Source of the DNA: Candidatus Levyibacteriota bacterium
GTDB lineage: Bacteria > Patescibacteriota > Microgenomatia > Levybacterales > UBA12049
DNA: 64,000 nucleotides
Direction of reading: 5' to 3'
NCBI GenBank assembly: GCA_003152105.1
Contig: PLZJ01000003.1
Coordinates: 70,899 to 134,898 of the forward strand
The position numbers and the translations under genes are program-made. Under the pieces are notes generated by a model. It worked only from the letters and a program-made list of their open reading frames with translations, did not search any database and had not been told where the DNA came from. Each line of letters begins with the position of its first letter. The first letter of the stretch is position 1. Positions 18,228-52,786 of this stretch are shown here, piece after piece.

Positions 18228-18248
18228 TTGTCAAGTACCTAAAACGAT

Positions 18249-18545: not shown

Positions 18546-18554
18546 AGTATCCCT

Positions 18555-30715: not shown

Positions 30716-31251
30716 AAGCGCTCCATTTTATTGTATTTCCCAAAAGTTAGGGAAGAAAAAAGAATAGTATTACTCGTCTTTCTTCCCTAACCTTCCATTC
30801 TCAGTTGTAAACGTGCGAAAAAACTCAGAAAGAGACAATGGAAAAACAGCTATTGCAATTCGATGTCATTTTCTGTGTAGGAAGTATAGCACAAAATGCT
30901 CTGTAATCTCAACTATAGGGTGTTATTTTATACCTCAACAAAAGTCTTATAATAATTGACTTTACCTCTTGGGAGGCATATAATTCCCACACAGTCGTTG
31001 GTGACTTTCGTATACTACAGTACATAAGCTGTGCTTTTGTGACAAAAGATATCAACACTTACTCGCACATTAAAAACAAAACCTATATCCTAGAGTGTCA
31101 TTTGCTCTGGTTGCAGGAAAAGAGGGGAAAACGTTTTTCTCTTGTTTTTCTGCAATCACCAAGCAACACACATAAAAGGAGTACATATACAACAACGCGT
31201 CTGGCTATTTCGTTTCATTCTCATCTCACAACAAAAGGAAGGTAAGTGAAC

Positions 31252-32484: not shown

Positions 32485-32495
32485 CTGGAGGTAAG

Positions 32496-33110: not shown

Positions 33111-33270
33111 CCTATTAGGTTTTGTCGCGAGTCTAAGATGGGTCGGTTAAGTGATTAAATTCACGTATGCTAGTTCTACTAGTATATTTCCGACCCCTCT
33201 TATTCTCATCATTTTCCAAAACAACTTTATCTTTTTTAACAATCAAAAAATATGACAATTTTTTCTCTTC

Positions 33271-33290
33271 TTATATATATAAGAAGGGGA
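33271..33290. repeat. Perfect 20-bp palindrome CTTCTTATATATATAAGAAG at the right boundary of the higher-GC block
   Basis: Seen directly in sequence. Confidence 0.4.
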
Positions 33291-33388
33291 GAATAATTTT
33301 TGCTGTTTTAGCTTCAAAATGGGTGTTTTTTTTCACCTATACCCTGTACTATTTTAGGTGATATATTTTTAGTTAAAAAAAGAGGAAT

Positions 33389-34183
33389 TTACCTATCTTG
33401 TTTTCCTTTTTTCCAGGAAACTGCAGTAAGAAGGGGAGCATATAAGTCGTCATCTAACCCAATATACACTGCATCGAGTTCTTCTTTTGTTGGATTTCTG
33501 TCCTGAAAGGATACAAACGGCAGATCTTCTATGATAGCAAGTGGCGTTTGCTCATTTCCTTCTCCCATAACAAGCACTGATGCAGACGCTAAACTATCGC
33601 CAATATGGAGTTTTTCGTATTGAAATAACCTACCAAAAATATCTGGGGTTCCGTCATAGTGCTTTAAGATTTCAAAACCAGAGTGGGCAATACACATACC
33701 TGTTACTCCCCAGCGCATTGGCGTTGTTTTTGAATCAGTAATAATGACGCCAACGTGTTTTAAATTAAATTTGGTTTGTAAAAAGGAACGGATCGTATTT
33801 GCACTTTCCTGTAAGTCCCTGGGCCAAAGAACGTAGCTTCCATTAGCATTTGATTCGTCTATCCCTGCAGCAGCTCCTAACATATTGTGTGAAATGGTAA
33901 TACACAAATTATATTTAGAAAGACTTCTTGGTAAAAAATATGCTGCTTCTTCTTCTATTAATTCATCTTTATCTCTTGTTAGTGGTGCTATTCTTCTCTG
34001 GGAGATTGCCATAATTTTTGACGTTATTGCAACAACACTGTTTTCAGATAGTTGGGTTATGTATTTATCTATTATCTGAGTAATGTCAGTGTCGGCTGTT
34101 GTAATGACACGTGTTTTTATTCCTGTTATTTTCACTACGGTATTATATAGGAAAGATGAGGGAGTTACAAAATTACCTGTCAT
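33389..34183 (-). CDS. CofE-like protein (F420-0:gamma-glutamyl ligase family)
   Basis: Family-typical GVIITDS...P.RWGVTGMCIAHSG region. 264 aa. Confidence 0.75.
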   Translation of the reverse strand: MTGNFVTPSSFLYNTVVKITGIKTRVITTADTDITQIIDKYITQLSENSVVAITSKIMAISQRRIAPLTRDKDELIEEEAAYFLPRSLSKYNLCITISHNMLGAAAGIDESNANGSYVLWPRDLQESANTIRSFLQTKFNLKHVGVIITDSKTTPMRWGVTGMCIAHSGFEILKHYDGTPDIFGRLFQYEKLHIGDSLASASVLVMGEGNEQTPLAIIEDLPFVSFQDRNPTKEELDAVYIGLDDDLYAPLLTAVSWKKGKQDR

Positions 34184-34328
34184 GTAGCATGTCTGCTACA
34201 AACATTAGGGAAAGTACAATAAATGGTATACCAATAAAGTAGAAAAGTAATGCTTCTGTCATATTAAATCAATAATAGCAGGTGAGTTTGAGAAATAGAT
34301 GATATTAGTGTAAGAAATGGGAAAGAAC

Positions 34329-34679
34329 TTAAGAAACAAATTCTCCTTCAATGATATGAAGGTTGGCGTATTCTCGCAATATGTGTGCATTTCTAATATT
34401 TGCTTTCCAAAATAAATAACCAGCATCTCCTAAAACGGGAATTAATCCAAGCAGAAAATCAATACCAATATTTAAAAGCATAAGAAGCAGTTTTGGAAGA
34501 GGTAGTTTCATTTGTATACCAATCCATACAATATATAAAGAAAGTATCGTTGCGATTGCATCGCCAAATCCGGGAATAAGATCCAAGATTACGTTGAGTC
34601 CAATACGAAACGGCCCAATGCCAAACCTATTGTCTAAAAACATTGCCAGCATTTCAGCAGTTCTGACGTGTTGTTCCAT
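34329..34679 (-). CDS. DUF4112-like small membrane protein
   Basis: LD.IPGFGDAI and LGLIPVLGDAGY motifs with two TM helices. Confidence 0.55.
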   Translation of the reverse strand: MEQHVRTAEMLAMFLDNRFGIGPFRIGLNVILDLIPGFGDAIATILSLYIVWIGIQMKLPLPKLLLMLLNIGIDFLLGLIPVLGDAGYLFWKANIRNAHILREYANLHIIEGEFVS

Positions 34680-34741
34680 AACACAAATAGTATCATAGTA
34701 CGTTTGATTGTAGGGTAATAAATGCGTAAGAATTGTGGAGT

Positions 34742-35683
34742 TTACTCTTTGTTTCCGCTATGAAATGCAGTGTGAACTTCTCGCAGTTGCTTATTGGTAA
34801 CGTGGGTATAAATTTGTGTTGTTGCAATATTTTTGTGCCCAAGCATTTCTTGCACTGAGCGCATATCTGCGCCATTTGATAAAAGATCTGTTGCAAAACT
34901 ATGACGCAAAGTATGTACAGTTGCATCAACTGGAATTCTGGCAAGACGGGTATATTTTTTGACAATTCGCTCAATTGTTCGAACTGTTAAGCGCATTTTT
35001 TCTCCATTATTTTCCTCAGAAAGTCTACCTGAATAGCGAATGAAAAGTGGCTTGTAATGATCTTCTCGCATTGAAACATACCGATCAATCCATTCTGCTG
35101 CGCGATCAGAGATAAATACAAGTCGGTGTTTTCGTCCTTTGCCAATAACACCAAATTCTCTTCTTTGTACGTTGATGTCTTGATGATTAAGCGACACAAG
35201 TTCTGATACACGAAGACCAGTTGAAAATAGCAGTTCTATAATTGTTCTGTCCCGAACACCTTCTTCTTTGCTCGTATCAACAGCAGTAAGTAAACGCTCT
35301 ACTTGTTCACGCTCCAAAAACTTAACTGATCTGCTTTCTGCTTTTGGCAAATCAATTTTTGATGGTTCAAGTGTCACATGATCATTTTTAATTAAATACC
35401 GAAGAAAAGACCGAAGCGCGATAATATAATAGTTTTGTGTAATACGCTTGAGTGTTAAATTATTTTGATCAACTCTGTTTGATAAGTACACACGAAATTT
35501 TCGGACATCCGAAAGAGTCAAATCTGCAACTTTTTTGCCAGGATAATTTTCCTCAAGCCACGCCGAGAAAACGAGTAAATAGTGACGGTAATCTCGAATA
35601 GTTAACTTTGAACAGTTTTTCTCGATTTCAAGATATTCTAAAAATTCGTTAATAAGAAGAACAAGAGCTGAAGGAGTTTCCAT
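34742..35683 (-). CDS. Tyrosine site-specific recombinase, XerC/XerD-like
   Basis: N-terminal SAM-like core-binding domain. Catalytic-region R...HxxR...Y pattern (HTLRHSFAT...TQIYTHV). Start placed at METPSAL. Confidence 0.85.
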   Translation of the reverse strand: METPSALVLLINEFLEYLEIEKNCSKLTIRDYRHYLLVFSAWLEENYPGKKVADLTLSDVRKFRVYLSNRVDQNNLTLKRITQNYYIIALRSFLRYLIKNDHVTLEPSKIDLPKAESRSVKFLEREQVERLLTAVDTSKEEGVRDRTIIELLFSTGLRVSELVSLNHQDINVQRREFGVIGKGRKHRLVFISDRAAEWIDRYVSMREDHYKPLFIRYSGRLSEENNGEKMRLTVRTIERIVKKYTRLARIPVDATVHTLRHSFATDLLSNGADMRSVQEMLGHKNIATTQIYTHVTNKQLREVHTAFHSGNKE

Positions 35684-35784
35684 GTAACAAGTATCTATAA
35701 ATATCGTTCTTTTGTCAAACAACACCTCTTACTACAAGCCTTTTTTCGTTGACAAAATACCTGTTTGTCTCGCATACTAAATAT

Positions 35785-37275
35785 ATGCGTGACGATTATA
35801 TTAAACTTATTAAAGAATATGTAGGACTTAGGCCTGATTATAAACACACCTTAAATGAAATTAGAGCACATGTACTCTTAATTGGCGCAACAGAGGAAGA
35901 ATTTAATAAAGCAATGCAAGATTTAACAGGCATTCCAAATGCTGTTGCAATGCTTCAGACAAAAGACCAGGTAGTACCAAGTGCTAGTGATGACCCAATA
36001 ACAAAAGTTGAAAAAGAGGTAAAAATACATAAAAAACTAAGTATTGTCGCAGCTTGTATACTCCTTTTTATTGTCGGAAGCGGAATATTCCTTGCAACGC
36101 TGACGGGCAAATCTAACCAAAGCACAATACTTTCAAAAAAAATAGTACTGCCAAAAAGTGCAAAAAGCTTACAAGAGGTGTATGCAAGTACATTTGCGAT
36201 AAATGGACAACAAGTCTTCTCATACCCTGCAAAAAACAAAGTACAGCTTGCAGTACCAAATAAACCACAAAAGCAAATTGTTGGGTTTTTCCCATACTGG
36301 ATGCTTGACGAGGCACAAAACATAACGCTCACTCCCTATACGCAGCTAAATTTGTTTTCTATTGATATGGATGGAAAAGGAAATGTTGTTAGTATTGATA
36401 GTAGTGGAACGCCTGATGGGGGATGGTCAATGTGGAATGACGATAACTTAAATCCATTAATTCAAAAAGCCAAAGCGCAAAATGTCAAAGTGCTTCTTAC
36501 CTTTCGCTCATTTGACAATTCTGATATTGAGCAACTTGTTGCCTCAGATGATAATCAAAAACGATTTATTGCAAATGCACTGTATATGGTGAATGAGAAA
36601 AACTTAGATGGGATAAATATTGATTTTGAGTATGTGGGAACACCAAGTGATGCAACACAACTTGGTTTTACTCGTTTTATCACTAACTTACATACTGAAC
36701 TACTTCGACAAGATCCAGGATCACTTCTAACCATTGATACGTATATATCCTCAGGTCAAACACCCAATCTGTTTGATATTTCTTCTTTGGTCGATGTATC
36801 TGATGCCTTAATTATCATGGGATATGACGTCCATACACCAGGCGGAGATCCGGGTTCCATTGCACCCATGCAAGGAGATTCAAATATCATAGGCTTTATG
36901 CAAAATTACTTAGAAAAAGTACCTGCAACAAAACTAATTCTGGCAGTACCATATTATGGCTATGATTGGCCGCTACCAGAGGCAAATGGTGCGGATTCAG
37001 GAGAACAAGTACAAATGGTGCCATATGCTGAAATTATTGCAAATACCGGGCAATATAAAATACAGTGGGATCCAAACTCTGAAACACCATGGTATACCTA
37101 TATAGACTCAAGCAATGTAACACACGAAGTACATTTTGAAGATGTTCGGTCTCTTGGCATAAAGTATGACTATATTAATGAAAAAGGATTACAAGGTGTT
37201 GGTGTATGGGCACTAGGATACGAGGGAAACAACAATGACTTAGATAATCTGATTATTAATAAATTCTCCCAGTAA
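35785..37275 (+). CDS. Membrane-anchored GH18 (chitinase-like) glycoside hydrolase
   Basis: Cytoplasmic N-terminus, one TM helix, then a GH18 domain with LDGINIDFEY (a DxxDxDxE variant; second Asp is Asn). Start uncertain: TTG at 35749 or ATG at 35785. Confidence 0.7.
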   Translation: MRDDYIKLIKEYVGLRPDYKHTLNEIRAHVLLIGATEEEFNKAMQDLTGIPNAVAMLQTKDQVVPSASDDPITKVEKEVKIHKKLSIVAACILLFIVGSGIFLATLTGKSNQSTILSKKIVLPKSAKSLQEVYASTFAINGQQVFSYPAKNKVQLAVPNKPQKQIVGFFPYWMLDEAQNITLTPYTQLNLFSIDMDGKGNVVSIDSSGTPDGGWSMWNDDNLNPLIQKAKAQNVKVLLTFRSFDNSDIEQLVASDDNQKRFIANALYMVNEKNLDGINIDFEYVGTPSDATQLGFTRFITNLHTELLRQDPGSLLTIDTYISSGQTPNLFDISSLVDVSDALIIMGYDVHTPGGDPGSIAPMQGDSNIIGFMQNYLEKVPATKLILAVPYYGYDWPLPEANGADSGEQVQMVPYAEIIANTGQYKIQWDPNSETPWYTYIDSSNVTHEVHFEDVRSLGIKYDYINEKGLQGVGVWALGYEGNNNDLDNLIINKFSQ

Positions 37276-37307
37276 TTACCACACATAACTTATAATATAG
37301 GTTCTTC

Positions 37308-37401: not shown

Positions 37402-38142
37402 ATGAAACATATACCACATTTATTCGGATTTATCGCAAGTTTTATAGGTATTATAGTATTATTTTTACTGGTTGCCAAACCTGCCTATGGGACTTATACT
37501 CAACCTTCATTTCCTTCATGTTCAGCTCCTTCGGGTACAATAATCGCAAGTTATGCAACCGGAACGCACGCAATTGCAGGAGACCCAAATCTTCATACCG
37601 GTTCTGATACGGTATATCAAGAATCAGATATAACAGTTATGCAGTGTTTTTGTCCTGACGATTTAAGTGGAAAAGGTATTCAAACAAATTGGTGGGACGT
37701 TGCGGATTTATCATCTGATGACATACAAACACTAATTGGCAATGGATGGATAAATGAACCAAATGGATCTGATTGGGGACTCAATAACGCACCTTATCTT
37801 GCCATGAATAGCAATTTTGATTGTTCAGCCGAAACCCCAACACCTACACCAAGTGTGACGCCAGAAATAACGCCAACAGCAACGCCTTCGGCAACCCCAA
37901 CACCAAATCCAGGTAATGGATCAGGTGGTGGAGGATCGTCTTCAAGCTCATCTTCAAATTCAGGTGGTAGTTCAAGTACTAGCTCACAACCTGCAACCTC
38001 TCAACCTGCAGTACAAACGCTAGCTTCAACAGGTACATTTTTTGAAAACGCAATGAGTTATGTTTTTGGACTTGGCATATTATTTATACTTATGTCGCTT
38101 AACAATTATGTCAAAGAATCGTTCCAAATCAAAAAAAGCTAA
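37402..38142 (+). CDS. Sortase-substrate surface protein with LAXTG-type sorting signal (LASTG) and a Thr/Pro/Ser-rich linker
   Basis: Signal peptide, a Cys-containing domain, a TPTPTPSVTPEITPTATPSATPTPNPG...SSSSSSSNSGGSSSTSS linker, then LASTG, a hydrophobic helix and a basic tail. Confidence 0.7.
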   Translation: MKHIPHLFGFIASFIGIIVLFLLVAKPAYGTYTQPSFPSCSAPSGTIIASYATGTHAIAGDPNLHTGSDTVYQESDITVMQCFCPDDLSGKGIQTNWWDVADLSSDDIQTLIGNGWINEPNGSDWGLNNAPYLAMNSNFDCSAETPTPTPSVTPEITPTATPSATPTPNPGNGSGGGGSSSSSSSNSGGSSSTSSQPATSQPAVQTLASTGTFFENAMSYVFGLGILFILMSLNNYVKESFQIKKS

Positions 38143-38683
38143 AACCAATAGATTTTTGCCCTCTCTGTACACACTTATTCCGCTCATTATTGGCGTTTTT
38201 TTCCTTATATTGTATGCGTATTGGTATATTGCCTTTGGACCATATTCACTTCAGTTTAACAGCGTACCAAAAGCTTTTACGAGTTCTCTCTCAACCCCTG
38301 TTAGTATTTCGATTCCACGAGAAAAACTCACTCTATCCGTATCAGAAGCTGCTATAACCCATAACCAGTGGCAAGTAAGTCAAACTGGAGTTTCGCATCT
38401 TGCCATATCTGCAAATCCCGGCAATAAAGGAAATATTATAATTTATGGGCACAATAAAGACGAGTTATTTGGTAATATTCGAAATCTCCTTCCAACTGAC
38501 CAAATTATTATTCAAACAAAAGACAAAAAGCTTCACAAATATATAGTCTATGCAACTGACACCGTTTCACCAAATGACATAAGTGTCATTGCAAGCACAA
38601 ATAAAGAGGTTTTAACCCTCTATACCTGTACTGGATTTGCTGATTTAGAGAGGTTTATAGTAAAAGCTTATCCTGTAGTATAG
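38108..38683 (+). CDS. Sortase (class E-like)
   Basis: IYGHN catalytic His and TLYTC catalytic Cys (TLXTC). N-terminal membrane anchor. Start placed at MSKNRSK (38108). Confidence 0.8.
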   Translation: MSKNRSKSKKAKTNRFLPSLYTLIPLIIGVFFLILYAYWYIAFGPYSLQFNSVPKAFTSSLSTPVSISIPREKLTLSVSEAAITHNQWQVSQTGVSHLAISANPGNKGNIIIYGHNKDELFGNIRNLLPTDQIIIQTKDKKLHKYIVYATDTVSPNDISVIASTNKEVLTLYTCTGFADLERFIVKAYPVV

Positions 38684-38834: not shown

Positions 38835-38860
38835 GACGGGTACATTATCCGTCTTTTTTT
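38835..38860 (+). promoter_or_regulatory. Terminator-like hairpin GACGG-GTACATTAT-CCGTC plus T7 ending 3 nt before the start of the giant glycosyltransferase gene; possible attenuator or leader element
   Basis: Seen directly in sequence. Confidence 0.35.
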
Positions 38861-38863
38861 CAA

Positions 38864-41800
38864 ATGGACAGAAACATTTCTATTATTGTTCCAACATATA
38901 ATGAAGAAGGAAATATTGTTCCGCTATTAAATCGTATCCACAAAGCCGCAAAAACCGCAAAACTAACCTATGAAGTCATCGTTATTGATGACAATTCAAA
39001 AGACAAAACACTCAAAAAAGTTAAGGCACTAAAGTTATCTTATCCAGTCACTGCACCAAAGAAAAATGGTAAACCAGGTAAAGCATATTCGTTGCTTCAA
39101 GGCTTTTCACTTGCAAAATATGACACTATTTGCATGATTGATGCAGATTTACAATATCCACCTGAAGCAATACCACTCATGTTTGATCAAATCCAAGAAG
39201 GAGCAGATATTGTTGTGGCAAATAGAATTAAAGAAAATGCAGGACTAAAACGAAAAATAATCAGCAATACGTTTCGATTTGTATTTGGAAGATTACTACA
39301 TGGTTTCTCAGTAGACGTACAATCAGGCCTTAAAGTCTTTAGAAAAAGGGTGATTGAAGAACTTTCTCTTTCACCTACATCTGCATGGACACTTGATATG
39401 GAACTATTAGTAAAAGCACGAAACGCAGGCTTTGTCATTTCTTCATTTGACACCGAGTTTGAACAAAGACATGATGGTGATGCAAAAATAAATTTAACAA
39501 GAGCAACGTTTGAAATTTTAAAAAGTGCACTAGAACTTAAATTTCAAAGAACACAAGTTGTGCCATTTACCAGCGAAAAAGAAAAAGAAACGGGAAAAGG
39601 ATTTCACCACAAAGGAAAACAATATATTCATTATTCAAATCTCCCGCAAGAAGAAACAGCGTTTTTTAGACTATCGACAATCCAAATGCTTCTTATTTGT
39701 GACTTAGTACTGGTGCTTATCTTCTCACTACTTGTTAATTGGCACCTTACCTTGATTATTATTCTTGCATTCTTAACGCTTTTCTATTTTATTGATTTGT
39801 TTTTCAACTTATATTTAATATTACAAAGCTTATCAAAAGAAATTTCAATTGGCGTCACAGAGGAGGAACTTGCAACTCTAAAAGACAAAGATCTTCCGAT
39901 GTATACGATTTTATGTCCGCTGTACAAAGAGTGGAGAGTTGTACCGCAATTTATCTCTGCAATGAACAATCTAGTATACCCAAAAGACAAACTTCAAATT
40001 ATGCTGCTGCTTGAAGAAAATGACACAAAAACAATTGAAAAGATAAAAACATATGTACTTCCTGATATGTTTGAAATTGTCATTGTTCCAGATTCAAATC
40101 CAAAAACAAAACCAAAAGCACTCAATTACGGACTCCTCGTTGCAAAAGGGGATTATACCGTCATTTACGATGCAGAAGATATGCCAGATCCACTCCAACT
40201 TAGAAAAGCACTTATTGCATTTTCTAAACTTCCTAAAAAAGTCATCTGTATCCAAGCAAAACTTAATTTTTATAATCCAACCCACAATATTCTCACAAAG
40301 CTTTTCTCAGCTGAGTATGCACTTTGGTTTGATCTTGTACTACCAGGACTGCAGTCACTAAATGCGCCGATTCCACTTGGAGGAACTTCTAATCATTTTA
40401 AAACATCGGTCCTTCGAAGTCTTAATGGATGGGACGCGTTTAATGTAACTGAGGATTGTGATTTAGGAATACGACTTTCGAAAAAAGGCTATCAAACAGC
40501 AATTATTGACTCAACAACACTTGAGGAAGCAAATAGTAATATTTTTAACTGGTTTAATCAACGATCTCGTTGGATAAAAGGGTATATTCAAACCTACTTT
40601 GTGCACACAAGAGATCTTCGAACAACAATCATGTCAAAAGACCAGAAAAAGGTAGCACTCTTTAACATAATTGTAGGAGGCAAAATTGCCTCTATGTTTA
40701 TTAATCCGTTAATGTGGATTATTACTCTTTCATACTTTGCATTTCGACCAATCGTTGGTCCTGCTATTGAATCATTTTATCCTGCTCCCGTACTATACAT
40801 GGGAGTTGTTTGTATTGTTTTTGGTAACTTTTTGTATTTGTACTATTACATGCTTGCGTGCGCCAAAAGAGGGCAAGACAATTTAATTATCTATGCATTT
40901 TTAGTTCCAGTTTACTGGCTTACGATGAGTATTGCCTCAGTAAAGGCAGTCATAAGTATTATTTATAATCCACATTACTGGGCAAAAACAAAACACGGAT
41001 TATTCCTCGAAGAAGCAGAATCGCAAACTGAAAATGAGCAAATGTATGAAGAAACACTTGGCTACAAACAAAACTGGTACGCACCTTCTTTTGTCTATCA
41101 AAAAGCAAAAAATACATGGAAAAGTTCAACACATTTACAAATGGGAACGTTTTTTGCCTTATCGGCAACACTTGCTAATTTCTTAAACTTTTTTTATAAC
41201 GCATTCTTAGGTCGAGTTCTTTCGTTTGATGAATTTGGAACAATAGCACTGCTTAGTAATTTTCTCCTTATTCTAGGTATTTTTATCGAGTCTACCTCAG
41301 GTACTATTTCGCAAAAAATTGCCTACTTTTCTGCAAAAAAACGCCAAGATGCAGCGCTTACTTTTTATAACTATGTAGTAATGAGGATTATTATTCTCGC
41401 AAGTTCTGTCGCAATTCTATGGATGGTTTTTGCACCTTTGCTTGCATTGTTTTTCCACACACAAGGAACGCTCCCAATTATTGTATTTACTCCCGTTATT
41501 TTAATGGCGATGATTACGGCAGTAAACGCAGGGTTTTTACGAGGGAATATGGCGTTTGTCAGCGTTGGTATTATTACGCTTATTGAAGGACTTGTGAAGC
41601 TCTCTTCAATGTTTTTCTTTGTGTTTGAAAAACAACAATCGCTTGCTTACTTTGCAATACCACTTGGTATTTTATCGACCTTTATCTTGACATTAATACT
41701 CACAACCCGTCAACTTGTCAAACAAAAACCAACAACGATGAAAAATACAACTCATTTCCCTTGGAAGTTTTTTAGTTCTTATTTGTTTATTGGCGCCTCA

Positions 41801-43585
41801 ACAATCGCATTTCTTTCTTTAGATGTACTGCTTGTAAAACATTTCTTTTCGCCAAAAATTGCAGGAGAATATGCACTCCTTTCATTAATTGGAAAAATGA
41901 TTTTCTACTTTAATTACTTTTTCAATACACTCCTTGTTCCATTAACTAGTCGCTATGAGGGTCTCTATGGCAGTTCTACAAAGTTGTTTCGAAACATGAT
42001 GTTTCTAAGTGTTCTTTCCTCAGGAAGTATATTTCTTTTTGTCGGGCCACTTGGCTTTTTATTCTTACCAATTCTTTTTGGAAGTAAAGCAGTTGTAATA
42101 TTACCGTACGTTGTTTTATATAGCCTTGGTATTTTCCTCTTTAATCTTTCAAACAAAATTGCGGTATATCACATGTCAAGACACGATCACGTTTTTCCAG
42201 TTTCTATGTCATTTGCATCGCTATTAATGCTTTTGGGTATTTGGACATTTCATCAAAGTATTTATCAAGTTGTGTGGGTAATACTTGGTATTAATATATT
42301 TACCTTTCTACTTCTTCTTTCACTGCACTTTTTACAAGAAAAAGTTAAGTTTGTCATTTCAAATACTGTTGACTTTTTAGAACTTCTGCAACCACTCAAA
42401 AGTAGACGATCAAAAACTAATGTTGAAAAAAATATCCTAATATTTAACTGGAAAGACATTCGTCATGTGCATGCAGGAGGATCTGAAGTATATGTGCATG
42501 AACTTGCAAAACGATGGGTAAAAGACGGCTATTCAGTTACACTTTTTTGCGGAAATGATGGCAATTCACAAAGAAGAGAAACAATAGATGGGATTGAAAT
42601 AATACGTCGAGGCGGCTTTTATATGGTATATCTTTGGGCATTTTTATACTATATGTTCCATTTTAGAGGGAAATACGAAACGATAATTGACTGCGAAAAC
42701 GGTATCCCATTTTTTACACCACTTTTTGCGTTTTCAGAAAAGAAATTCTTACTCATACACCACATACACAAAGACGTGTATAAGTTTAAATTAAAACCAC
42801 CACTTTCTTGGATTGGCATGTATTTAGAAATGAGCCTAATGCCAAAAGTATATAGAAAAGTAAAGTTTATTACGGTTTCTCCTTCAACAAAAGAAGAATT
42901 ACTTGCTGCAAAATTAACACATATTGATCCTGTTATTGTTTACAACGGAGTGGATATTCAAACGTATACACCTGGTAAAAAAAGTATCGTACCAACCGTA
43001 CTTTATTTAGGAAGATTAGAAAAATACAAAAGTATTCATATTTTAATTGAATCAATGGAACATATTGCAAAAAAAGTACCAGCAGTAAAATTTGTTATCG
43101 CTGGAGAAGGAACAGAAAAATTTAAATTAGAACAACACGTTAAAAGATTACCTTTTAAAGCAAATATAGAATTTTTAGGAAAAGTATCTGAAGAAGAAAA
43201 AGCAAGACTCTACCAAAAAGCGTGGGTATTTGTAAATCCTTCATTTAAAGAAGGGTGGGGAATTACTGTTATTGAAGCAAATGCTTGTGAGACGCCTGTT
43301 GTTGCTTCAAATATTTCTGGGCTTCGAGATTCAGTTATTCATTTACAAACTGGACTTTTGGTTCCATATGGCAATATCAAAGCACTTTCAGATTCAGTTT
43401 TAAGACTACTTATTGATGATTCGCTCCGAAATGAACTTGGTAAAAATGGCCGTGAATGGGCAAAACTTTTTGAATGGAGATTTAGTGCGCGAAAAACGTT
43501 AAATATTATAGAAGAACGTGAACTTGAACCAGAAAAACCAATAAGTCATTTTACGAAAAATATTAGCTTATCAAGCTCGATATAA
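38864..43585 (+). CDS. 1573-aa multidomain glycosyltransferase: GT2 (DPM1/GtrB-like), TM helices, GT2 (processive, QxxRW), MOP/Wzx-like flippase domain, GT4
   Basis: aa 1-230: ISIIVPTYNEEGNI...VIVIDDNSKDKT. aa 340-700: DAED, TED and QRSRW motifs. aa 700-1180: about 12 TM helices with a Polysacc_synt-like start (LGRVLSFDEFGTIALLSNF). aa 1200-1573: GT4 with EGWGITVIEA (EX7E). Confidence 0.85.
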   Translation: MDRNISIIVPTYNEEGNIVPLLNRIHKAAKTAKLTYEVIVIDDNSKDKTLKKVKALKLSYPVTAPKKNGKPGKAYSLLQGFSLAKYDTICMIDADLQYPPEAIPLMFDQIQEGADIVVANRIKENAGLKRKIISNTFRFVFGRLLHGFSVDVQSGLKVFRKRVIEELSLSPTSAWTLDMELLVKARNAGFVISSFDTEFEQRHDGDAKINLTRATFEILKSALELKFQRTQVVPFTSEKEKETGKGFHHKGKQYIHYSNLPQEETAFFRLSTIQMLLICDLVLVLIFSLLVNWHLTLIIILAFLTLFYFIDLFFNLYLILQSLSKEISIGVTEEELATLKDKDLPMYTILCPLYKEWRVVPQFISAMNNLVYPKDKLQIMLLLEENDTKTIEKIKTYVLPDMFEIVIVPDSNPKTKPKALNYGLLVAKGDYTVIYDAEDMPDPLQLRKALIAFSKLPKKVICIQAKLNFYNPTHNILTKLFSAEYALWFDLVLPGLQSLNAPIPLGGTSNHFKTSVLRSLNGWDAFNVTEDCDLGIRLSKKGYQTAIIDSTTLEEANSNIFNWFNQRSRWIKGYIQTYFVHTRDLRTTIMSKDQKKVALFNIIVGGKIASMFINPLMWIITLSYFAFRPIVGPAIESFYPAPVLYMGVVCIVFGNFLYLYYYMLACAKRGQDNLIIYAFLVPVYWLTMSIASVKAVISIIYNPHYWAKTKHGLFLEEAESQTENEQMYEETLGYKQNWYAPSFVYQKAKNTWKSSTHLQMGTFFALSATLANFLNFFYNAFLGRVLSFDEFGTIALLSNFLLILGIFIESTSGTISQKIAYFSAKKRQDAALTFYNYVVMRIIILASSVAILWMVFAPLLALFFHTQGTLPIIVFTPVILMAMITAVNAGFLRGNMAFVSVGIITLIEGLVKLSSMFFFVFEKQQSLAYFAIPLGILSTFILTLILTTRQLVKQKPTTMKNTTHFPWKFFSSYLFIGASTIAFLSLDVLLVKHFFSPKIAGEYALLSLIGKMIFYFNYFFNTLLVPLTSRYEGLYGSSTKLFRNMMFLSVLSSGSIFLFVGPLGFLFLPILFGSKAVVILPYVVLYSLGIFLFNLSNKIAVYHMSRHDHVFPVSMSFASLLMLLGIWTFHQSIYQVVWVILGINIFTFLLLLSLHFLQEKVKFVISNTVDFLELLQPLKSRRSKTNVEKNILIFNWKDIRHVHAGGSEVYVHELAKRWVKDGYSVTLFCGNDGNSQRRETIDGIEIIRRGGFYMVYLWAFLYYMFHFRGKYETIIDCENGIPFFTPLFAFSEKKFLLIHHIHKDVYKFKLKPPLSWIGMYLEMSLMPKVYRKVKFITVSPSTKEELLAAKLTHIDPVIVYNGVDIQTYTPGKKSIVPTVLYLGRLEKYKSIHILIESMEHIAKKVPAVKFVIAGEGTEKFKLEQHVKRLPFKANIEFLGKVSEEEKARLYQKAWVFVNPSFKEGWGITVIEANACETPVVASNISGLRDSVIHLQTGLLVPYGNIKALSDSVLRLLIDDSLRNELGKNGREWAKLFEWRFSARKTLNIIEERELEPEKPISHFTKNISLSSSI

Positions 43586-43587
43586 GT

Positions 43588-44685
43588 ATGAATTTAAACA
43601 TTGTTTTCTTAGATTTTGACGATATAAAAAACCCATTGCTTAGTGCTGGCCAAGCGCATGCAACGGTTGAAGTAGGCAAACGTCTCGCAAAAAAAGGACA
43701 TACCATCTCTGTCTTGTCATCCAAATATCCAGGCTATAAAGACAGAAAAGAAAATGGATTACAGTATAAACACATTGGTCTTGGATCGGGGAATATTAAA
43801 TTAAATAATCTTATCTATATTGTTGTACTTCCGTTTTATGTAAAAAGCATAAAAGCAGATATTATCATAGAATGTTTTACTGCTCCTATTTCAACAATGT
43901 TTTCCCCTTTATTTACTAAAATTCCTGTTGTTGGTCTACCGACTTCATTTGAAGCAGCCAGATTTTCAAAGCTTTATCACTTGCCATTTGATGTAATTGA
44001 AAAATTTGGTTTAAAGCATTATCGATATGTCATGCCCTATACAAATGACATGAAAAAGGAGATGCTCAAAGTCAATCCTGCATTAAAAACAAAAGTAGTT
44101 GGTCAGGGGGTAGATGCACTCTATACAAAAATTAAAAAGAAAACTCCCAAATATATTCTCTATCTTGGAAGATATGATATTTCTCAAAAAGGATTAGATT
44201 TACTTCTTAAAGCTTATGCTTTGACAGATCCTAAAAACACGCTTCCACTGGCTTTTTATGGACATGGTTCAGATGAAAATACGCTTCGTGAAACAATAAC
44301 TAACCTAAAGCTTTCTAGTCGCGTCTCTGTACACAAAGGAGCATATGATAAGAAAAAAGAAGAAGTACTTTCTCATGCCTCAAGTGTTGCATTTCCATCT
44401 CGTCATGAAGGATTTTCGCTGTTCTCGCTTGAAGCGTTAGCAAGTGGCCTTCCACTTATATCATTTGCGATATCAGGGCTTTCTTGGACAAATAATAAGG
44501 TCAATTTAAAAGCAAAACCATTTAATATAAAAGAGTATGCAAATCTACTTACTCTTGGCTCAAATATAAAAAAAGTGAATGAAATGGGTAAAAATGCGAG
44601 AGAATTTGCAAAACACTATAGTTGGGATAGTGTCGCATCTCAATTTGAATCGTTTTTTACTGACATTGTAAGTGGCGCTATATGA
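43588..44685 (+). CDS. GT4-family glycosyltransferase
   Basis: HEGFSLFSLEALASGLPLI (EX7E motif). Confidence 0.8.
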   Translation: MNLNIVFLDFDDIKNPLLSAGQAHATVEVGKRLAKKGHTISVLSSKYPGYKDRKENGLQYKHIGLGSGNIKLNNLIYIVVLPFYVKSIKADIIIECFTAPISTMFSPLFTKIPVVGLPTSFEAARFSKLYHLPFDVIEKFGLKHYRYVMPYTNDMKKEMLKVNPALKTKVVGQGVDALYTKIKKKTPKYILYLGRYDISQKGLDLLLKAYALTDPKNTLPLAFYGHGSDENTLRETITNLKLSSRVSVHKGAYDKKKEEVLSHASSVAFPSRHEGFSLFSLEALASGLPLISFAISGLSWTNNKVNLKAKPFNIKEYANLLTLGSNIKKVNEMGKNAREFAKHYSWDSVASQFESFFTDIVSGAI

Positions 44686-44834: not shown

Positions 44835-46898
44835 ATGAAAGTTAATTTCTATAAGCCATTAATAACGGGGAATGAGCTCACATATATTGCTGATATTATT
44901 GAAAATAATAAGGCAATGCTTGGTGATGGGGAGTATACACATAAAGCACAAGCATTCTTAGCAAAAAGATATAAAATAAATAAAGTACTGCTAACTACCT
45001 CTGGTACTACAGCTTTAGAACTTGCACTTCGACTTTGTAATTTAAAACCAGGAGACGAAGTCATCGCACCTTCATTTACATTTTCTTCCTCAATAAACGC
45101 AGTACTACTCCTCCATGAAGTAAAAGTAGTATTTGCTGACATTGATAAAAAAACACTCAATATTGATCCAAAAGACGTAAAACGAAAAATCACTAAAAAA
45201 ACGAAAGCAATAATGGTCGTACACTACGCTGGGGTCGCAACTGATATGGATGCGATCATGCAGATTGCCAAAAAGCGCAAGATAAAAGTTATTGAAGATG
45301 CAGCTCAAGGTATAGAAGCAAAATGGAAAAATAAATATCTTGGCACAATAGGAGACTTTGGATGTATGTCTTTTCATGCTACGAAAAACATAACAATGGG
45401 AGAGGGGGGAGCGCTTTTTATAAATACGAAAAACAAACAAATACTTGAACAAGCAGAAGTACTTCGAGAAAAAGGAACAAACAGACATAAATTCTTGCGC
45501 GGAGAAGTTGATAAATATACATGGGTATCAATTGGATCAAGCTATTTGCCTTCAGACCTTCTTAGTGCATTTCTGTTTGCACAACTTGAGCAAATTGAGT
45601 CAATTACAAAACAAAGACTTAGTGTTTATAATTATTACTATAATAGTTTGTATCAGTACGAAGAGGAAGGCTTAATACAGCTTCCTAAAATTCCATCCTA
45701 TGCAACGCATAATGGCCACGTATTTTTTATACTATGTAAAAACACAAAAGACAGAGATGAGGTAATAACATATCTTAGAAAAAATGGCATTACGGCTCCG
45801 TTTCATTACATACCACTGCATTCTTCTCCTCAAGGAAAAAAATTAGGGTATAAAGCATCAGATTTACCTATTACAGAAAAGGCAAGCGAGACGCTCCTCA
45901 GACTTCCTATGTATTCAGGAATGCCTACAGAAGAACAAGATTATGTCGTACATCACGTAAAAACAATTTTAGACAAACTATATCACGTAACTAAGCCAAC
46001 AGTAACAATTGGCATTCCAGCTTATAATGAAAGCGCCAACATAAAACATCTACTTACGCAAATAACAAAGCAGAAACAACTTACCTTTACTCTTGAAAAA
46101 ATTATTGTTGTTTCAGACGCAAGTTCGGATGACACTGTTAAAAAAGCAAGTAGTTTGCCTGACAAAAGAATTAAAGTTATTGATCACAAAACAAGAACTG
46201 GCCAAAATAAAATACAAAATGAAATTTTCAGTTTATCTAAATCTGCTATTTGTATTATTTTAGAAGCAGACACCAGAATTCCTAACACCAACTATATAGC
46301 AACACTTATTGCCCCTATGACAAAAAATAAAGATGTGTCCCTTGTACAAGGAAATCCAGTACCTCTTCCTGCGAAAACATTTATAGGAAGTACACTTTCA
46401 CTTCATTCTCAAATATTTCATGCCTCATCTGCAAATAAACCAGAAATTGCAGAATGGATTGCAAATGGTAGAGGAGGAAGAGCATTCGCAAAAAAGCTTT
46501 ATACAAAACTTCGATGGCCACAAAATGTATCAGAAGATGATTATGGTTTGCTTTGGAGTAAAACTAACGGTTTCACAACTGTTTTTGAAAAAAACGCAAA
46601 GTCATATTATAAATGCTCAGAAACACTTTCAGACTACTTGTTAGAAATTAAAAAAGCAAAATCTATTGGCGGCATGATAGAAACATATTTTGCTCCAACA
46701 TTGACAGAAAATGTATTTTCTAGGCCTAGAAATATGAGACTAAAAATGGGAGCAACATTTCTTATTAAAAATCCGCTGTATTTTGCCTCATATATTGGAG
46801 TTAAGCTATATGCAAATAGTAATGTTAAAAAAATGAAATTTACTGATTTTTGGCCACAAATTAGTTCAACAAAAATTCTTAAAAACTATGAAAAATAA
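44835..46898 (+). CDS. DegT/DnrJ/EryC1/StrS-family PLP-dependent sugar aminotransferase fused to a C-terminal GT2 domain
   Basis: aa 1-385: aminotransferase fold with the PLP-Lys context SFHATKN. aa about 390-687: VTIGIPAYNESANI...VVSDASSDDT GT2 domain. Confidence 0.8.
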   Translation: MKVNFYKPLITGNELTYIADIIENNKAMLGDGEYTHKAQAFLAKRYKINKVLLTTSGTTALELALRLCNLKPGDEVIAPSFTFSSSINAVLLLHEVKVVFADIDKKTLNIDPKDVKRKITKKTKAIMVVHYAGVATDMDAIMQIAKKRKIKVIEDAAQGIEAKWKNKYLGTIGDFGCMSFHATKNITMGEGGALFINTKNKQILEQAEVLREKGTNRHKFLRGEVDKYTWVSIGSSYLPSDLLSAFLFAQLEQIESITKQRLSVYNYYYNSLYQYEEEGLIQLPKIPSYATHNGHVFFILCKNTKDRDEVITYLRKNGITAPFHYIPLHSSPQGKKLGYKASDLPITEKASETLLRLPMYSGMPTEEQDYVVHHVKTILDKLYHVTKPTVTIGIPAYNESANIKHLLTQITKQKQLTFTLEKIIVVSDASSDDTVKKASSLPDKRIKVIDHKTRTGQNKIQNEIFSLSKSAICIILEADTRIPNTNYIATLIAPMTKNKDVSLVQGNPVPLPAKTFIGSTLSLHSQIFHASSANKPEIAEWIANGRGGRAFAKKLYTKLRWPQNVSEDDYGLLWSKTNGFTTVFEKNAKSYYKCSETLSDYLLEIKKAKSIGGMIETYFAPTLTENVFSRPRNMRLKMGATFLIKNPLYFASYIGVKLYANSNVKKMKFTDFWPQISSTKILKNYEK

Positions 46899-47847
46899 TA
46901 CCACAACAAAAAGTATGAAAAATACCAAACAAAAACACGTGTTAAAAACGCTTTCAATTGGGATTCCTGCACATAATGAAGAAGCAACACTTCCTTCATT
47001 AATCAGCTCAATTGCACAACAAAAACATACCTTGTTTACACTTGAAAATGTCTATATCTTAAATGATGCAAGTACTGACAATACTGTAGAACTTGCTAAT
47101 TCACTTTCTAAAAAATACCCATTTGTGCATCTTGTAAATGATGGACAACGACTTGGAAAAGCAGCAAGACTTAACGCATTATATAAAGCAAATAAAAGTG
47201 ATATTTTAGTTTGTTTTGACGGAGATATACAACTTACCTCAAATAGGGTTCTTGAAGAAATGGTTAAAGCACTTGATGACAAAGATGTTGCACTTGCTAC
47301 CACAAACAAACTTCCTCATACACCAATAAATTTTTTTGAAAAACTTATATATACCTTAGATATGCTTTGGTATGATATTAGACTTACACTAAATGGAGGA
47401 GATAATGTATATAATGTTGCAGCTTCAGGAATTGGCATTAATGGAACATTTGCAAAAACACTCAAGTTGCCAGCAGGAACTAGTTTTGATGCAGAAATAC
47501 TTTTTATCAGCGCACTACGAAAATATAAAAAAACAGTATTTTTAAAAGATGTTCCAATATATTTCCACCTTCCAGCAAACCTTGCTGATTACATATCACA
47601 ATCAAGTCGCGTCGCAAGTCCAGAAACAAGAAAAATCATAAATAGCGCAAACGAAATTTATGTAGTACCAAACTCGCTTAAAATAAAAGCAATAATTAAA
47701 TCATTTGCAAAACATCCAATATTAACACCTCTTTCTTTTGCTCTCTTATATTACGTAAGACGAATGAAAAAGAAACATGGAAAAGTTTCAAAAACCCCTT
47801 ATTGGGATACTGCAGCTTCTACAAAAAGAGCTTTTACCGCTCAGTAA
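46888..47847 (+). CDS. GT2 glycosyltransferase, paralog of the GT2 domain of the upstream fusion
   Basis: LSIGIPAHNEEATL...ILNDASTDNT aligns with the C-terminal domain of 44835-46898. Confidence 0.75.
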   Translation: MKNNTTTKSMKNTKQKHVLKTLSIGIPAHNEEATLPSLISSIAQQKHTLFTLENVYILNDASTDNTVELANSLSKKYPFVHLVNDGQRLGKAARLNALYKANKSDILVCFDGDIQLTSNRVLEEMVKALDDKDVALATTNKLPHTPINFFEKLIYTLDMLWYDIRLTLNGGDNVYNVAASGIGINGTFAKTLKLPAGTSFDAEILFISALRKYKKTVFLKDVPIYFHLPANLADYISQSSRVASPETRKIINSANEIYVVPNSLKIKAIIKSFAKHPILTPLSFALLYYVRRMKKKHGKVSKTPYWDTAASTKRAFTAQ

Positions 47848-47860
47848 TAATATTATCATT

Positions 47861-49411
47861 ATGAATTTATTTAAGCATTTTTCTTTTACCATACTACCTT
47901 ACTTATGTATCATACTAATTGGTCTTATCCTATATACGGCAACTATAAAAGGAGCAGTAGGAAATCCCAATGGACAAATACATCAACTTGGACTAGATCA
48001 ATCTGGTAAAGCTTTTGAACTGTCACCTGAGCGAGATCGTTATCTCTTAACATATGCCATGGCAACTACTGGGACAACGTCAATTCCAAAAGCAGTTGCT
48101 GATGCTAATTATTCTGATATTGGGTATTACGAGGGTAAATTCTATATTCTTTTCGCTCCAGGTATTTCAGTACTTGCGCTGCCTTTTTATCTGATTGGTG
48201 CACATTTTAATGTAGCACAAGTAGGAACATTTGCTGTTATTCCTCTTTTTACTATTTTAAGTCTTTTATTTTTATATAAAATTTCAAGAAAGGTATTCAA
48301 ATTACCGGTATGGTCTTCACTTATAGCACCACTTATTTTTGGATTTTCATCAACCTCCTGGAGCTATGCAACAACGCTTTATCAACATCAAGTAACAACA
48401 TTTTTGATCGTCTCTTCTTTTTATGCAGTGTATTTGTATAGACAAAAATATAAAAATGGATGGCTTCTTTCCTCGTATGTTTGGTTAGCTTTTGGTGTAG
48501 CCTGTTCAATTGATTATCCAAATCTTTTGCTTATGGGACCAGTTGTAATCTATTTACTTATCTCACAATTTTCAATTAAAAAAGTAAGAAATTCATTATC
48601 TTTTTCATTCCAAAAAACACTTTTTACTGTAATCTTTTTCTTAGCAATAGTGCTCGTTAATGCATGGTATAACCAAACACATTTTGGCAGTTGGAAACGG
48701 GTAAGCGGTGATTTAGTAAATTATAAAACTATACTTGAACAGCATTTATTAACAAGTAAAAAAGGGACAGCAAAACTTGCAACAATCGCGAAAAACAAAA
48801 GTGATACTGTTTCATTTTTCTCAGAAGATAATATTCCCTTTAGCTTTTATACCTTAACAACTAGCTTAGACAGGGGACTACTATTATATAGCCCAATCTT
48901 TGTCATTGCGTTTTTGGGCATATTAGCAATGCTTTCAGATCTCTCAACTGAAACTATAATATTATTTGGACTTATTGGCATAGATGTCTTTTTATACAGT
49001 AGTTGGGGAGATCCATGGGGAGGATGGGCATTTGGACCACGATATCTTATCCCTGCAATGGCAATACTTTCCTTATTTGCGGCAAAATGGGTAACTCTTG
49101 CAAAACACAATTTGATCCGAAGAATAATTACTTTTATACTTATGACTTACTCAATTGCTATTGCGCTTCTTGGGGTACTCACCTCAAATGCAATTCCTCC
49201 AAAAGTAGAAGCAGATTATTTGCATACTGGCTATAACTTTTTACAAAATGAAAAATACTTATTTCATAATCAAAGTAGTAGCTTTTTCTACAACACATTT
49301 TTACATCAAAGCGTAACTCTACCAATGTATTTTGCCTATATCTACATAGGCCTTCTTGTTATAACAGTAACTGTTTTATTCGTATTACCAATTTTTACAA
49401 AACATGAATAA
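47861..49411 (+). CDS. Polytopic membrane protein, probable GT-C-fold glycosyltransferase (PMT/ArnT-like)
   Basis: About 12 TM helices with extracytoplasmic loops. Start moved to the ATG at 47861, after the upstream stop at 47847. Confidence 0.55.
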   Translation: MNLFKHFSFTILPYLCIILIGLILYTATIKGAVGNPNGQIHQLGLDQSGKAFELSPERDRYLLTYAMATTGTTSIPKAVADANYSDIGYYEGKFYILFAPGISVLALPFYLIGAHFNVAQVGTFAVIPLFTILSLLFLYKISRKVFKLPVWSSLIAPLIFGFSSTSWSYATTLYQHQVTTFLIVSSFYAVYLYRQKYKNGWLLSSYVWLAFGVACSIDYPNLLLMGPVVIYLLISQFSIKKVRNSLSFSFQKTLFTVIFFLAIVLVNAWYNQTHFGSWKRVSGDLVNYKTILEQHLLTSKKGTAKLATIAKNKSDTVSFFSEDNIPFSFYTLTTSLDRGLLLYSPIFVIAFLGILAMLSDLSTETIILFGLIGIDVFLYSSWGDPWGGWAFGPRYLIPAMAILSLFAAKWVTLAKHNLIRRIITFILMTYSIAIALLGVLTSNAIPPKVEADYLHTGYNFLQNEKYLFHNQSSSFFYNTFLHQSVTLPMYFAYIYIGLLVITVTVLFVLPIFTKHE

Positions 49412-52736: not shown

Positions 52737-52752
52737 TTAGACAATCATTAAG

Positions 52753-52786
52753 CCCCGTAGAGATTATCGGCTCTGCGGGGTTTTTT
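52753..52786 (+). terminator. Rho-independent terminator
   Basis: CCCCGTAGAG-ATTATCGG-CTCTGCGGGG followed by TTTTTT. Confidence 0.7.

Follow-up and report, generated by a model that had tools for sequence, protein, structure and literature searches.

A single Patescibacterial polypeptide joining three glycosyltransferase domains to a MOP-superfamily transporter, and the conserved operon that it heads

Introduction

In the Pel system, the family GT4 glycosyltransferase (GT) PelF polymerises the polysaccharide and the MOP-family protein PelG exports it, without a classical lipid-linked repeat unit. In the streptococcal Pgf system, the family GT2 enzyme PgfS and the membrane proteins PgfM1 and PgfM2 glycosylate sortase-anchored adhesins. 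The GacI, GacK and GacL proteins bring together a GT-A synthase of C55-phosphate-linked sugar, a Wzx-type flippase and a GT-C enzyme in the making of Gram-positive wall polymers (PMC8035078). The present work concerns a giant open reading frame (ORF) found at 38864-43585, on the + strand, of a 64,000-nucleotide stretch of DNA from a Candidatus Levyibacteriota bacterium (assembly GCA_003152105.1, contig PLZJ01000003.1, positions 70,899 to 134,898). This whole stretch is referred to below as the window. The ORF encodes a MOP transporter and, with catalytic motifs intact, three GT domains, all in a single chain. Each module belongs to a known family, and the combination matches no described system that was found.

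An earlier note on this DNA had read the frame as a DPM1-like GT2, a processive GT2, a Wzx-like flippase and a GT4 forming a self-contained synthase-exporter, with the caveat that it could have arisen from a frameshift or an assembly error. Large fused proteins, and glycosyltransferases with several domains, occur commonly in the genomes of the candidate phyla radiation (CPR), or Patescibacteria, a large and mostly uncultured group whose cell envelopes and host attachment are poorly understood. In the searchable literature, no prior description of the four-module fusion, of its modular relatives or of its operon was found.

Results

A conserved four-module polypeptide

The frame begins with an ATG, and translation of 38864-43585 on the + strand gives 1573 amino acids (aa) without an internal stop. 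It comprises, in this order, a GT2 domain (GT2a), a pair of transmembrane (TM) segments, a second GT2 domain (GT2b), a MOP block and a GT4 domain. The module boundaries lie at aa 235/271, 715/758 and 1158/1191, corresponding to 39.57/39.67, 41.0/41.13 and 42.34/42.43 kb; the junctions proposed at about 39.6, 40.9 and 42.4 kb in the earlier note were roughly right. The ORF list and the translation bear out its single uninterrupted frame. Its four domain assignments hold as well on hidden Markov model (HMM), PDB profile and fold searches, including that of a central 12-helix block distinct from the synthase.

The protein was searched against 5.8 billion protein clusters, which returned 960 matches at E<=1e-10. 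When the best 120 of these were examined, 119 were found to cover 98-100% of the query at 43-51% identity, with lengths of 1513-1922 aa. Orthologous fusions, for which the earlier note had advised a search, are thus represented by at least 119 full-length clusters among those 120 matches. The full-length orthologs originate from NCBI, JGI, ENA and Logan assemblies. Those that are named belong to Candidatus Roizmanbacteria, Niyogibacteria, Parcubacteria or the 'Patescibacteria group', with one exception (P0027) labelled Weeksellaceae, and public records call them merely 'glycosyltransferase' or 'hypothetical protein'. The identical 1573-aa protein is present on two contigs (NCBI/ENA), one of them 1.15 Mb long. 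Lengths at the junctions are constant among orthologs: the region aa 271-322 always has 52 aa, the region aa 599-715 always has 117 aa, and the linker between the MOP and GT4 modules has 27-33 aa. The stretch 38864-43585 is a genuine single polypeptide, conserved in Patescibacteria.

Motif invariance was scored in an alignment of 76 full-length orthologs. The DAED, TED, QRSRW and EX7E motifs that had been picked out in the first reading are all present, and invariant in this alignment. The GT domains are taken to be cytoplasmic because their substrates are nucleotide sugars. Counts of lysine plus arginine (K+R) in the loops likewise put these domains, and the loops flanking the MOP block, on the cytoplasmic side according to the positive-inside rule.

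The glycosyltransferase modules

GT2a (aa 1-235, 38864-39568; this and the following modules are all on the + strand) is a GT2 of the DPM1/GtrB/ArnC type according to Pfam, PDB profile, NCBIfam and motif evidence. A Glycos_transf_2 match covers aa 6-166 (Pfam, E 7e-37 with the 1573-aa protein), and both D42-D43 and D93-A-D95 are invariant. The nearest PDB match is the dolichyl-phosphate mannose synthase of Pyrococcus furiosus (5mlz, E 1.4e-29, aa 4-223), in view of which the label DPM1-like given previously is correct; GtrB (4e-19) and ArnC (2.6e-16) come next. The NCBIfam matches of the 1573-aa protein include PgfS, ArnC, AglJ, Agl16 and dolichyl-phosphate hexose transferase, all of them far below the equivalog cut-offs. 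By its GT-A DxD motif and its nearest homologs, GT2a is predicted to belong to the polyprenyl-phosphate glycosyltransferase group.

Two adjoining hydrophobic segments with the conserved motif YFxDxxFN (aa 271-322, 39674-39829) were delimited by hydrophobicity and alignment. The pair follows GT2a, yet it also occurs in stand-alone GT2b proteins, and for this reason it was tentatively assigned to GT2b. AlphaFold2 (AF2) models it as one long helix, whereas topology demands a hairpin. The catalytic domain of GT2b itself (aa 330-598, 39851-40657) gives the Pfam matches Glyco_tranf_2_3 (aa 347-573) and Glyco_trans_2_3 (aa 433-652), and its invariant motifs are KPKAxNxG, D436-A-E-D439, PLGGTSNHF, T529-E-D531 and Q566-R-S-R-W570. 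In the PDB profile search of the whole GT2b region (aa ~271-715) the best match is Escherichia coli BcsA (E 7e-18), followed by Rhodobacter BcsA and hyaluronan synthase (HAS). The AF2 model (pLDDT 83, pTM 0.84) retrieves with Foldseek, in order, BcsA (E 1e-14 over 439 columns), HAS (5e-14), the archaeal PcManGT and chitin synthases. Its motifs and its predicted fold would thus make GT2b a processive membrane GT2 synthase of the BcsA/HAS/CHS/PgaC group.

The C-terminal membrane region of GT2b (aa 599-715, 40658-41008) contains three hydrophobic segments according to the alignment, the K+R counts, AF2 and Foldseek. After the last of them comes an invariant P-x-x-W-x-K-T-x-H-G, a possible gating-loop equivalent whose likeness to the FxVTxK/WGTR type is a resemblance only. 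A hydrophilic, variable linker then leads to the MOP block (aa 716-757, 41009-41134, from the alignment and K/R content). With 19-113 aa and 9% identity among orthologs, it is the sole length-variable junction, and it is placed in the cytoplasm because it is rich in K and R. GT2b keeps its own helices in stand-alone proteins of ~480-530 aa (loci L041-L043, L035, L036). The central block had been expected by the earlier note to lose its flippase reading should it turn out to be the TM region of the synthase; this did not apply, as GT2b possesses aa 271-322 and 599-715. The candidate role of the central block as the synthase channel was ruled out by this separate, length-invariant membrane region and by the existence of stand-alone MOP genes.

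Outside the CPR, solely GT2b was found, at 42-50% identity, in Chloroflexota, Actinomycetota (Nocardioides, Paraconexibacter), Bacillota and Kiritimatiellae. It is usually preceded there by one to six tandem N-terminal MshEN domains (for example at 7256-11395 of L051, a Chloroflexi metagenome-assembled genome (MAG); also L069, L073 and L081), an architecture of which no description in those phyla was found in the searchable literature. MshEN is a receptor domain for cyclic di-GMP (c-di-GMP). It is also carried by NfrB, a c-di-GMP-controlled exopolysaccharide synthase of E. coli (PMC8669469). By analogy, the MshEN domains of the non-CPR relatives support the view that GT2b may be an exopolysaccharide synthase.

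The last module is preceded by an amphipathic helix and a short linker (aa 1159-1190, 42338-42433, from the model and the alignment), this being the junction of 27-33 aa mentioned above. The GT4 domain (aa 1191-1550, 42434-43513) is matched in Pfam by Glyco_transf_4 (aa 1205-1366, 59 bits) and Glycos_transf_1 (aa 1377-1532, 153 bits, E 7e-45). It has the invariant motifs GRxxxxK (G1383-R...K1389) and EX7E (E1463, E1471), and its nearest solved relatives in the PDB profile search include Tll1590, MshA, PimA, PglH and TarM. These family signatures indicate a generic retaining GT-B glycosyltransferase.

The MOP block

The central block (aa 758-1158, 41135-42337) contains 12 hydrophobic segments, and family-averaged K+R counts in the loops leave both ends in the cytoplasm. 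Its predicted model is of good quality (pLDDT 87.6, pTM 0.84), and all of the top 50 Foldseek matches of this model (50/50) belong to the MOP superfamily, being MurJ, WzxE or MATE proteins. As far as the model can tell, the block is a true and separate MOP-superfamily module, its 12 helices forming two bundles of six. Residues R784, D987, Y1003 and K1011 are conserved; the module as a whole is the least conserved of the protein (33% identity). Matches of its profile to orexin-receptor structures in the PDB (E 0.002) were dismissed as low-complexity TM similarity, and the fold searches decided.

The fold searches do not discriminate Wzx from MATE, and the family level was approached by sequence. 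Among 26 orthologous MOP blocks compared with Pfam, seven match Polysacc_synt (best 2.6e-7), one matches Polysacc_synt_3 and four match MatE (best 6e-11). Of five E. coli MOP proteins, WzxC, which flips colanic acid units, is the only one to align in register with the MOP family HMM, weakly (E 2e-5 in a database of these five sequences), and the alignment of the MOP profile with single E. coli sequences of WzxE, MurJ, RfbX and MdtK by hhalign was uninformative. The segment LANFLNFFYNAFLGRVLSFDEFG resembles the N-terminal consensus of Pfam Polysacc_synt. This sequence evidence makes it likely that the block belongs to the Wzx/PST family. Of the label 'Wzx-like flippase' in the earlier note, the superfamily is upheld by the fold; the Wzx level is not, since Wzx and MATE are left unseparated and the PST/Wzx evidence from sequence is weak.

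A MOP-family profile was also run against 1.84 billion representatives, 1205 of which were retrieved at E<=1e-30. Many are stand-alone proteins of ~410-470 aa. Many others begin with the MOP block and run to ~720-860 aa, a length close to that of the MOP-GT4 genes in the loci described below.

Fusion and fission across genomes

The full-length alignment was used to scan one genome per GTDB species, and the ORFs of the 82 loci obtained were scored with HMMs built for each module. The following concerns the 46 CPR loci among them. The complete GT2a-GT2b-MOP-GT4 fusion is found in the window and at L001-L007, L016 and L029. GT2b-MOP-GT4 is a single gene at L008, L010, L011, L028 and L034, and at L009 and L012 it adjoins a separate GT2a gene. 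The split can also fall in the middle, with GT2a-GT2b next to MOP-GT4 (L020, L027, L038) or GT2b next to MOP-GT4 (L032, L033). Stand-alone MOP genes adjoin GT2b at L035 and L036 and GT2a-GT2b at L023. Other loci encode GT2a-GT2b-GT4 without MOP (L025, L026, L030, L040, L044), GT2b-GT4 (L045) or GT2a-GT2b alone (L017, L019, L021, L022). Read from sequence, this Rosetta-stone pattern is the strongest evidence that the four activities would serve one process.

At L017, a MAG of the Saccharimonadales, the modules are expanded into paralogs. The region 1850-19292 encodes GT2a-GT2b twice, MOP once as a separate gene and one additional GT2b-like protein; it also has a GT2a-GT2b-MOP-GT4 fusion with a degenerate MOP block (score 102 versus ~450). 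Many of the third-party (TPA) MAGs that carry the fusion (loci L003, L004, L007, L019-L021 and others) bear titles such as 'uncultured Gammaproteobacteria', 'Bdellovibrionales' or 'Verrucomicrobiia'. In gene content they match the Patescibacteria loci, and the titles of these records are probably mislabelled.

The operon

The giant gene heads a conserved operon, all of it on the + strand. Only 2 nt past its stop starts a separate GT4 glycosyltransferase gene (43588-44685). The next gene (44835-46898) is a second unusual fusion, of a WecE-type dTDP-4-amino-4,6-dideoxyhexose transaminase (Pfam; NCBIfam PRK11706 at 516 bits, cut-off 375) with a GT2. It is followed by a GT2 of 319 aa (46888-47847; Pfam, NCBIfam and locus homologs), by two polytopic, GT-C-like membrane proteins of 544 aa (47777-49411) and 528 aa (49404-50990), and by an exported protein of 427 aa (51028-52311; Pfam and locus homologs), the last gene of the conserved cluster. 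A strong terminator-like hairpin with a 13-bp stem and a T-run (52750-52783) closes the cluster.

Homologs of these neighbors were counted at the 46 CPR loci, the counts being lower bounds since many loci are cut by contig ends. The 528-aa protein has homologs at 39 loci, the 544-aa protein at 31 and the 427-aa protein at 26. For the 319-aa GT2, any match (E<=1e-8) occurs at 34 loci, but several of these reflect weak similarity to the GT2 domains in the giant gene, and about 28 loci have a dedicated homolog of ~300 aa. In a phmmer search with E. coli WecA and WcaJ, a WecA-like gene was detected at one of the 46 loci, a WbaP-like gene at none, and neither in the cluster of the window, a result confined to the loci that leaves room for such a gene elsewhere in the genome. 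E. coli WzyE and WbbH gave no matches at the loci, a weak test as Wzy proteins diverge fast.

PMT_2 is the GT-C family of ArnT and of the protein O-mannosyltransferases. It matches the 528-aa protein in Pfam (E 3e-6), which in the alignment of its homologs shows an invariant YxDAxSH in the first loop; the 544-aa protein has a weak NCBIfam match to the LA_3751 glycosyltransferase family. The profile search of the PDB gave no match for either membrane protein. Their sequences make a GT-C assignment probable but weak. The C-terminus of the 427-aa protein matches CarboxypepD_reg beta-sandwiches (PDB; NCBIfam SusC/RagA, aa 337-413). Its N-terminal ~330 aa, over which no Pfam or PDB sequence match was obtained, contain the invariant acidic residues D50, E125, E165, E167, D236 and E264, and the protein may be an undescribed glycan-acting enzyme.

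Two genes on the same strand lie just upstream of the giant gene. The first (37402-38142) encodes a secreted protein of 246 aa with a signal peptide, a stalk rich in Thr, Pro, Ser and Gly, a LASTG sorting signal, a TM helix and a KKS tail. The second (38060-38683) encodes a sortase (Pfam Sortase, E 3e-25). Homologs of the LASTG protein are found at 13 of the CPR loci and those of the sortase at 11, the pair standing mostly at the far end of the glycan operon. From these sequence features, the LASTG protein is likely a sortase substrate; its gene neighborhood makes it a candidate glycosylation target. The LASTG gene overlaps the annotated sortase start at 38060, and the true start is probably later.

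A hairpin at 38835-38863, GACGGGTACATTATCCGTC, is followed by T7, and its end lies ~4-10 nt ahead of the ATG with which the giant gene starts. This structure could terminate the sortase unit or act as a 5' regulatory element. No obvious Shine-Dalgarno sequence was seen ahead of this ATG.

Other features of the window

Just upstream of the cluster are a tyrosine integrase gene (34742-35725, - strand) and a gene for a GH18 chitinase-like protein (35749-37275). The GC content is 0.46-0.48 at ~31-33 kb versus 0.33-0.36 in the glycan cluster, and a 412-aa ORF at 31246-32484 has no Pfam match. The region 30000-37300 may be a mobile-element boundary. The ORF 33389-34183 (- strand) matches the Pfam F420-0:gamma-glutamyl ligase (E 7.5e-33), which is unexpected for a genome whose best matches are Patescibacteria. 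No tRNA gene, and no Rfam family at the gathering threshold, was detected in the whole 64 kb.

Discussion

A proposed tethered surface-glycan pathway

We tentatively propose that the four modules belong to one surface-glycan pathway tethered in the cytoplasmic membrane, a scheme to which, taken as a whole, we give a little less than an even chance. On the cytoplasmic side of the membrane, GT2a would load a sugar onto polyprenyl phosphate, in the manner of DPM1, GtrB, ArnC, GacI and AglJ. GT4, possibly with the neighboring soluble glycosyltransferases, may extend this lipid-linked sugar, and the MOP block would flip the product, a sugar or oligosaccharide linked to polyprenyl phosphate, to the outer face, a role also ascribed to GacK and AglR. 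Outside the cell, the flipped lipid-linked donor would be used by the two downstream GT-C-like proteins. GT2b, for its part, would polymerise a backbone glycan from nucleotide sugar and extrude it. The acceptors of the GT-C-like proteins might be this polymer, the Ser/Thr/Pro-rich stalk of the LASTG protein, or both. Fusion would keep the synthesis of the donor, its flipping and the extrusion of the polymer in one place. The missing initiating phosphoglycosyl transferase at the loci fits a polyprenyl-monophosphate route.

One part of the earlier interpretation is not borne out by the genomic context. The reading as a 'self-contained synthase-exporter' is unsupported, since the giant gene shares its conserved operon with additional glycosyltransferase genes and with genes for two GT-C-like proteins. 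In other genomes, moreover, individual modules stand apart or are absent, and some versions have no MOP block.

Several observations weigh against the tethered pathway. The tightest pairs are GT2a-GT2b and MOP-GT4, which fits a junction of two machines at least as well. GT2a and MOP do not strictly co-occur: GT2a-GT2b-GT4 fusions exist that have no MOP block within 10 kb, as do GT2b-MOP-GT4 fusions that lack GT2a. Taken alone, the MOP block of the window has no Pfam match even at E<=10, and its sole NCBIfam match, Oglyco_Wzx, is end-to-end but not significant (E 1.4). The GT-C assignment is weak, PMT_2 being matched by only 5 of 24 homologs of the 528-aa protein and 2 of 25 homologs of the 544-aa protein. 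In the C-terminal region of GT2b, an odd number of hydrophobic segments, three, stands between two loops that both look cytoplasmic from their K+R content; by analogy with BcsA and HAS, one of the three is probably an interface helix. Finally, no biochemical or genetic data for any member of the family were found in the searchable literature.

Alternative explanations

The fusion might instead join two autonomous polymer machines, GT2a-GT2b and a Pel-like MOP-GT4 pair, with GT2a supplying a polyprenyl-phosphate-sugar primer or a side-chain donor for the BcsA-like synthase. The commonest sub-fusions are GT2a-GT2b (L002, L017, L019, L021, L022, L038) and MOP-GT4 (L020, L027, L032, L033, L038), the many representatives of ~800-840 aa with an N-terminal MOP block have the size of MOP-GT4 genes, and Pel provides the precedent of a GT4, PelF, paired with the MOP-family PelG. 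The existence of GT2a-GT2b-GT4 fusions without a MOP block points in the same direction; on the other hand, these fusions, together with GT2b-GT4 (L025, L026, L030, L040, L044, L045), attach GT4 to GT2b without MOP and suggest that GT4 serves the GT2b pathway. All modules moreover share one conserved operon, in which there are no PelD, PelE or PelA equivalents, and no Pfam family named for PelG, PelD, PelE or another Pel component occurs among the scan matches. This arrangement appears unlikely, while retaining some credit. A classical Wzx/Wzy line, in which the three glycosyltransferases build a repeat unit on undecaprenyl pyrophosphate, the MOP block flips it and its polymerisation or ligation falls to the polytopic proteins encoded downstream, would account for a MOP block flanked by glycosyltransferases, as is typical of Wzx-dependent clusters, for the Polysacc_synt matches of 7 of the 26 orthologous blocks, for WzxC as the best E. 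coli match, in register, and for the two polytopic membrane proteins downstream. We regard it as quite unlikely. An initiating phosphoglycosyl transferase is lacking at 45 of the 46 CPR loci, GT2a falls in the polyprenyl-monophosphate transferase group and not with repeat-unit transferases, GT2b has the full motifs, membrane region and fold of a processive synthase, and the downstream membrane proteins match PMT_2 (GT-C) while WzyE and WbbH match nothing.

A MOP block uninvolved in moving glycans, being instead an ion-coupled exporter of the MATE type or a degenerate scaffold fused for anchoring or co-regulation alone, seems very improbable. Such a role would agree with the MatE matches of 4 of the 26 orthologous blocks, the best of which reaches 6e-11, with the low conservation of the module (33% identity) and with fusions that lack MOP or, as at L017, carry a degenerate copy. 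Yet the block lies between glycosyltransferases in more than 100 orthologs, with the charged residues R784, D987 and K1011 kept, Polysacc_synt matches outnumber those to MatE, and its stand-alone copies adjoin GT2b genes (L035, L036, L023). There is a negligible chance that neighboring genes were joined into the long ORF by misassembly or a frameshift. The modules are separate adjacent genes in some genomes, and a few loci do look frameshifted: at L013 the split falls within the MOP block, and ORFs overlap at L009 and L012. This question was judged from conservation across independent assemblies, and an artefact is effectively excluded because at least 119 full-length clusters from four independent data sources exist and the junction lengths are constant; the uninterrupted frame and the identical protein on two contigs, one of 1.15 Mb, speak to the same effect. 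The caveat of the earlier note on this point can be set aside, full-length orthologs being known from more than 100 independent assemblies.

Significance

The BcsA-type synthase might even be primed in cis on the polyprenyl-phosphate-sugar made by GT2a, the MOP flippase handling the lipid-linked end or product. This is a speculative reading that we consider quite unlikely. Lipid-primed synthesis has long been debated for cellulose-synthase-like enzymes, and the fusion would, if so, be a natural example of it: a synthase-dependent polymer starting on, or staying attached to, a lipid carrier, as a hybrid of two export routes. In any case, a BcsA-like synthase, a MOP protein and a polyprenyl-phosphate-sugar synthase in one chain cross the divide between synthase-dependent and Wzx-dependent assembly, and the many ways in which these and GT4 are fused or split in nature argue for a functional link among the four that textbook pathway schemes do not show. 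The fusion family and its operon probably mark a major surface-glycan pathway of the CPR. A polypeptide with all modules would also be convenient for cryo-electron microscopy (cryo-EM) or reconstitution, and could show how a substrate is handed over from enzyme to flippase.

Comparison with known systems

The pairing of a GT4 with a MOP-family protein is shared with the core of Pel, and two-domain MOP-GT4 proteins are common in the family. Unlike in Pel, the two are covalently fused and linked to two GT2s, without a PelG-family match and without equivalents of PelD, PelE, PelA, PelB or PelC having been found. GT2b resembles BcsA, hyaluronan synthase, chitin synthase/NodC, PgaC and NfrB by its D, DxD, TED and QxxRW motifs, its flanking TM helices and its predicted fold, and its non-CPR relatives carry MshEN domains as NfrB does. 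In contrast to BcsA and NfrB, the CPR GT2b has neither PilZ nor MshEN, and it has fewer TM helices than BcsA. It further differs from BcsA-type synthases in being fused to a polyprenyl-phosphate-sugar synthase upstream and to MOP and GT4 downstream. Compared with the Wzx/PST proteins (WzxE, WzxC), MurJ and AglR, the MOP block is very divergent, the copy of the window falling below all curated HMM thresholds, and it is embedded in a multi-enzyme protein; it also lacks the two extra helices of MurJ.

As in archaeal N-glycosylation (AglJ, the further Agl glycosyltransferases and the AglR flippase), the pathway could start on a polyprenyl monophosphate; unlike there, no AglB-type oligosaccharyltransferase was found. 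The cluster shares with the streptococcal Pgf system a likely sortase substrate rich in Thr and Ser, the LASTG protein being linked to the pathway by gene neighborhood only. A DPM1/GtrB-type GT2 for polyprenyl-phosphate-sugar is likewise present in GtrB/GtrA/GtrX, in CsbB/GtcA/YfhO and in GacI/GacK/GacL of Streptococcus pyogenes (PMC8035078). The last of these comes with GacK, a flippase of the Wzx/MOP type, which the MOP block described here would resemble, and putative GT-C-like transferases are encoded in the present cluster. What sets the present locus apart from GacI/GacK/GacL is that the GT2 and the flippase, predicted here from their sequence, are parts of one polypeptide, to which a BcsA-like synthase and a GT4 are added.

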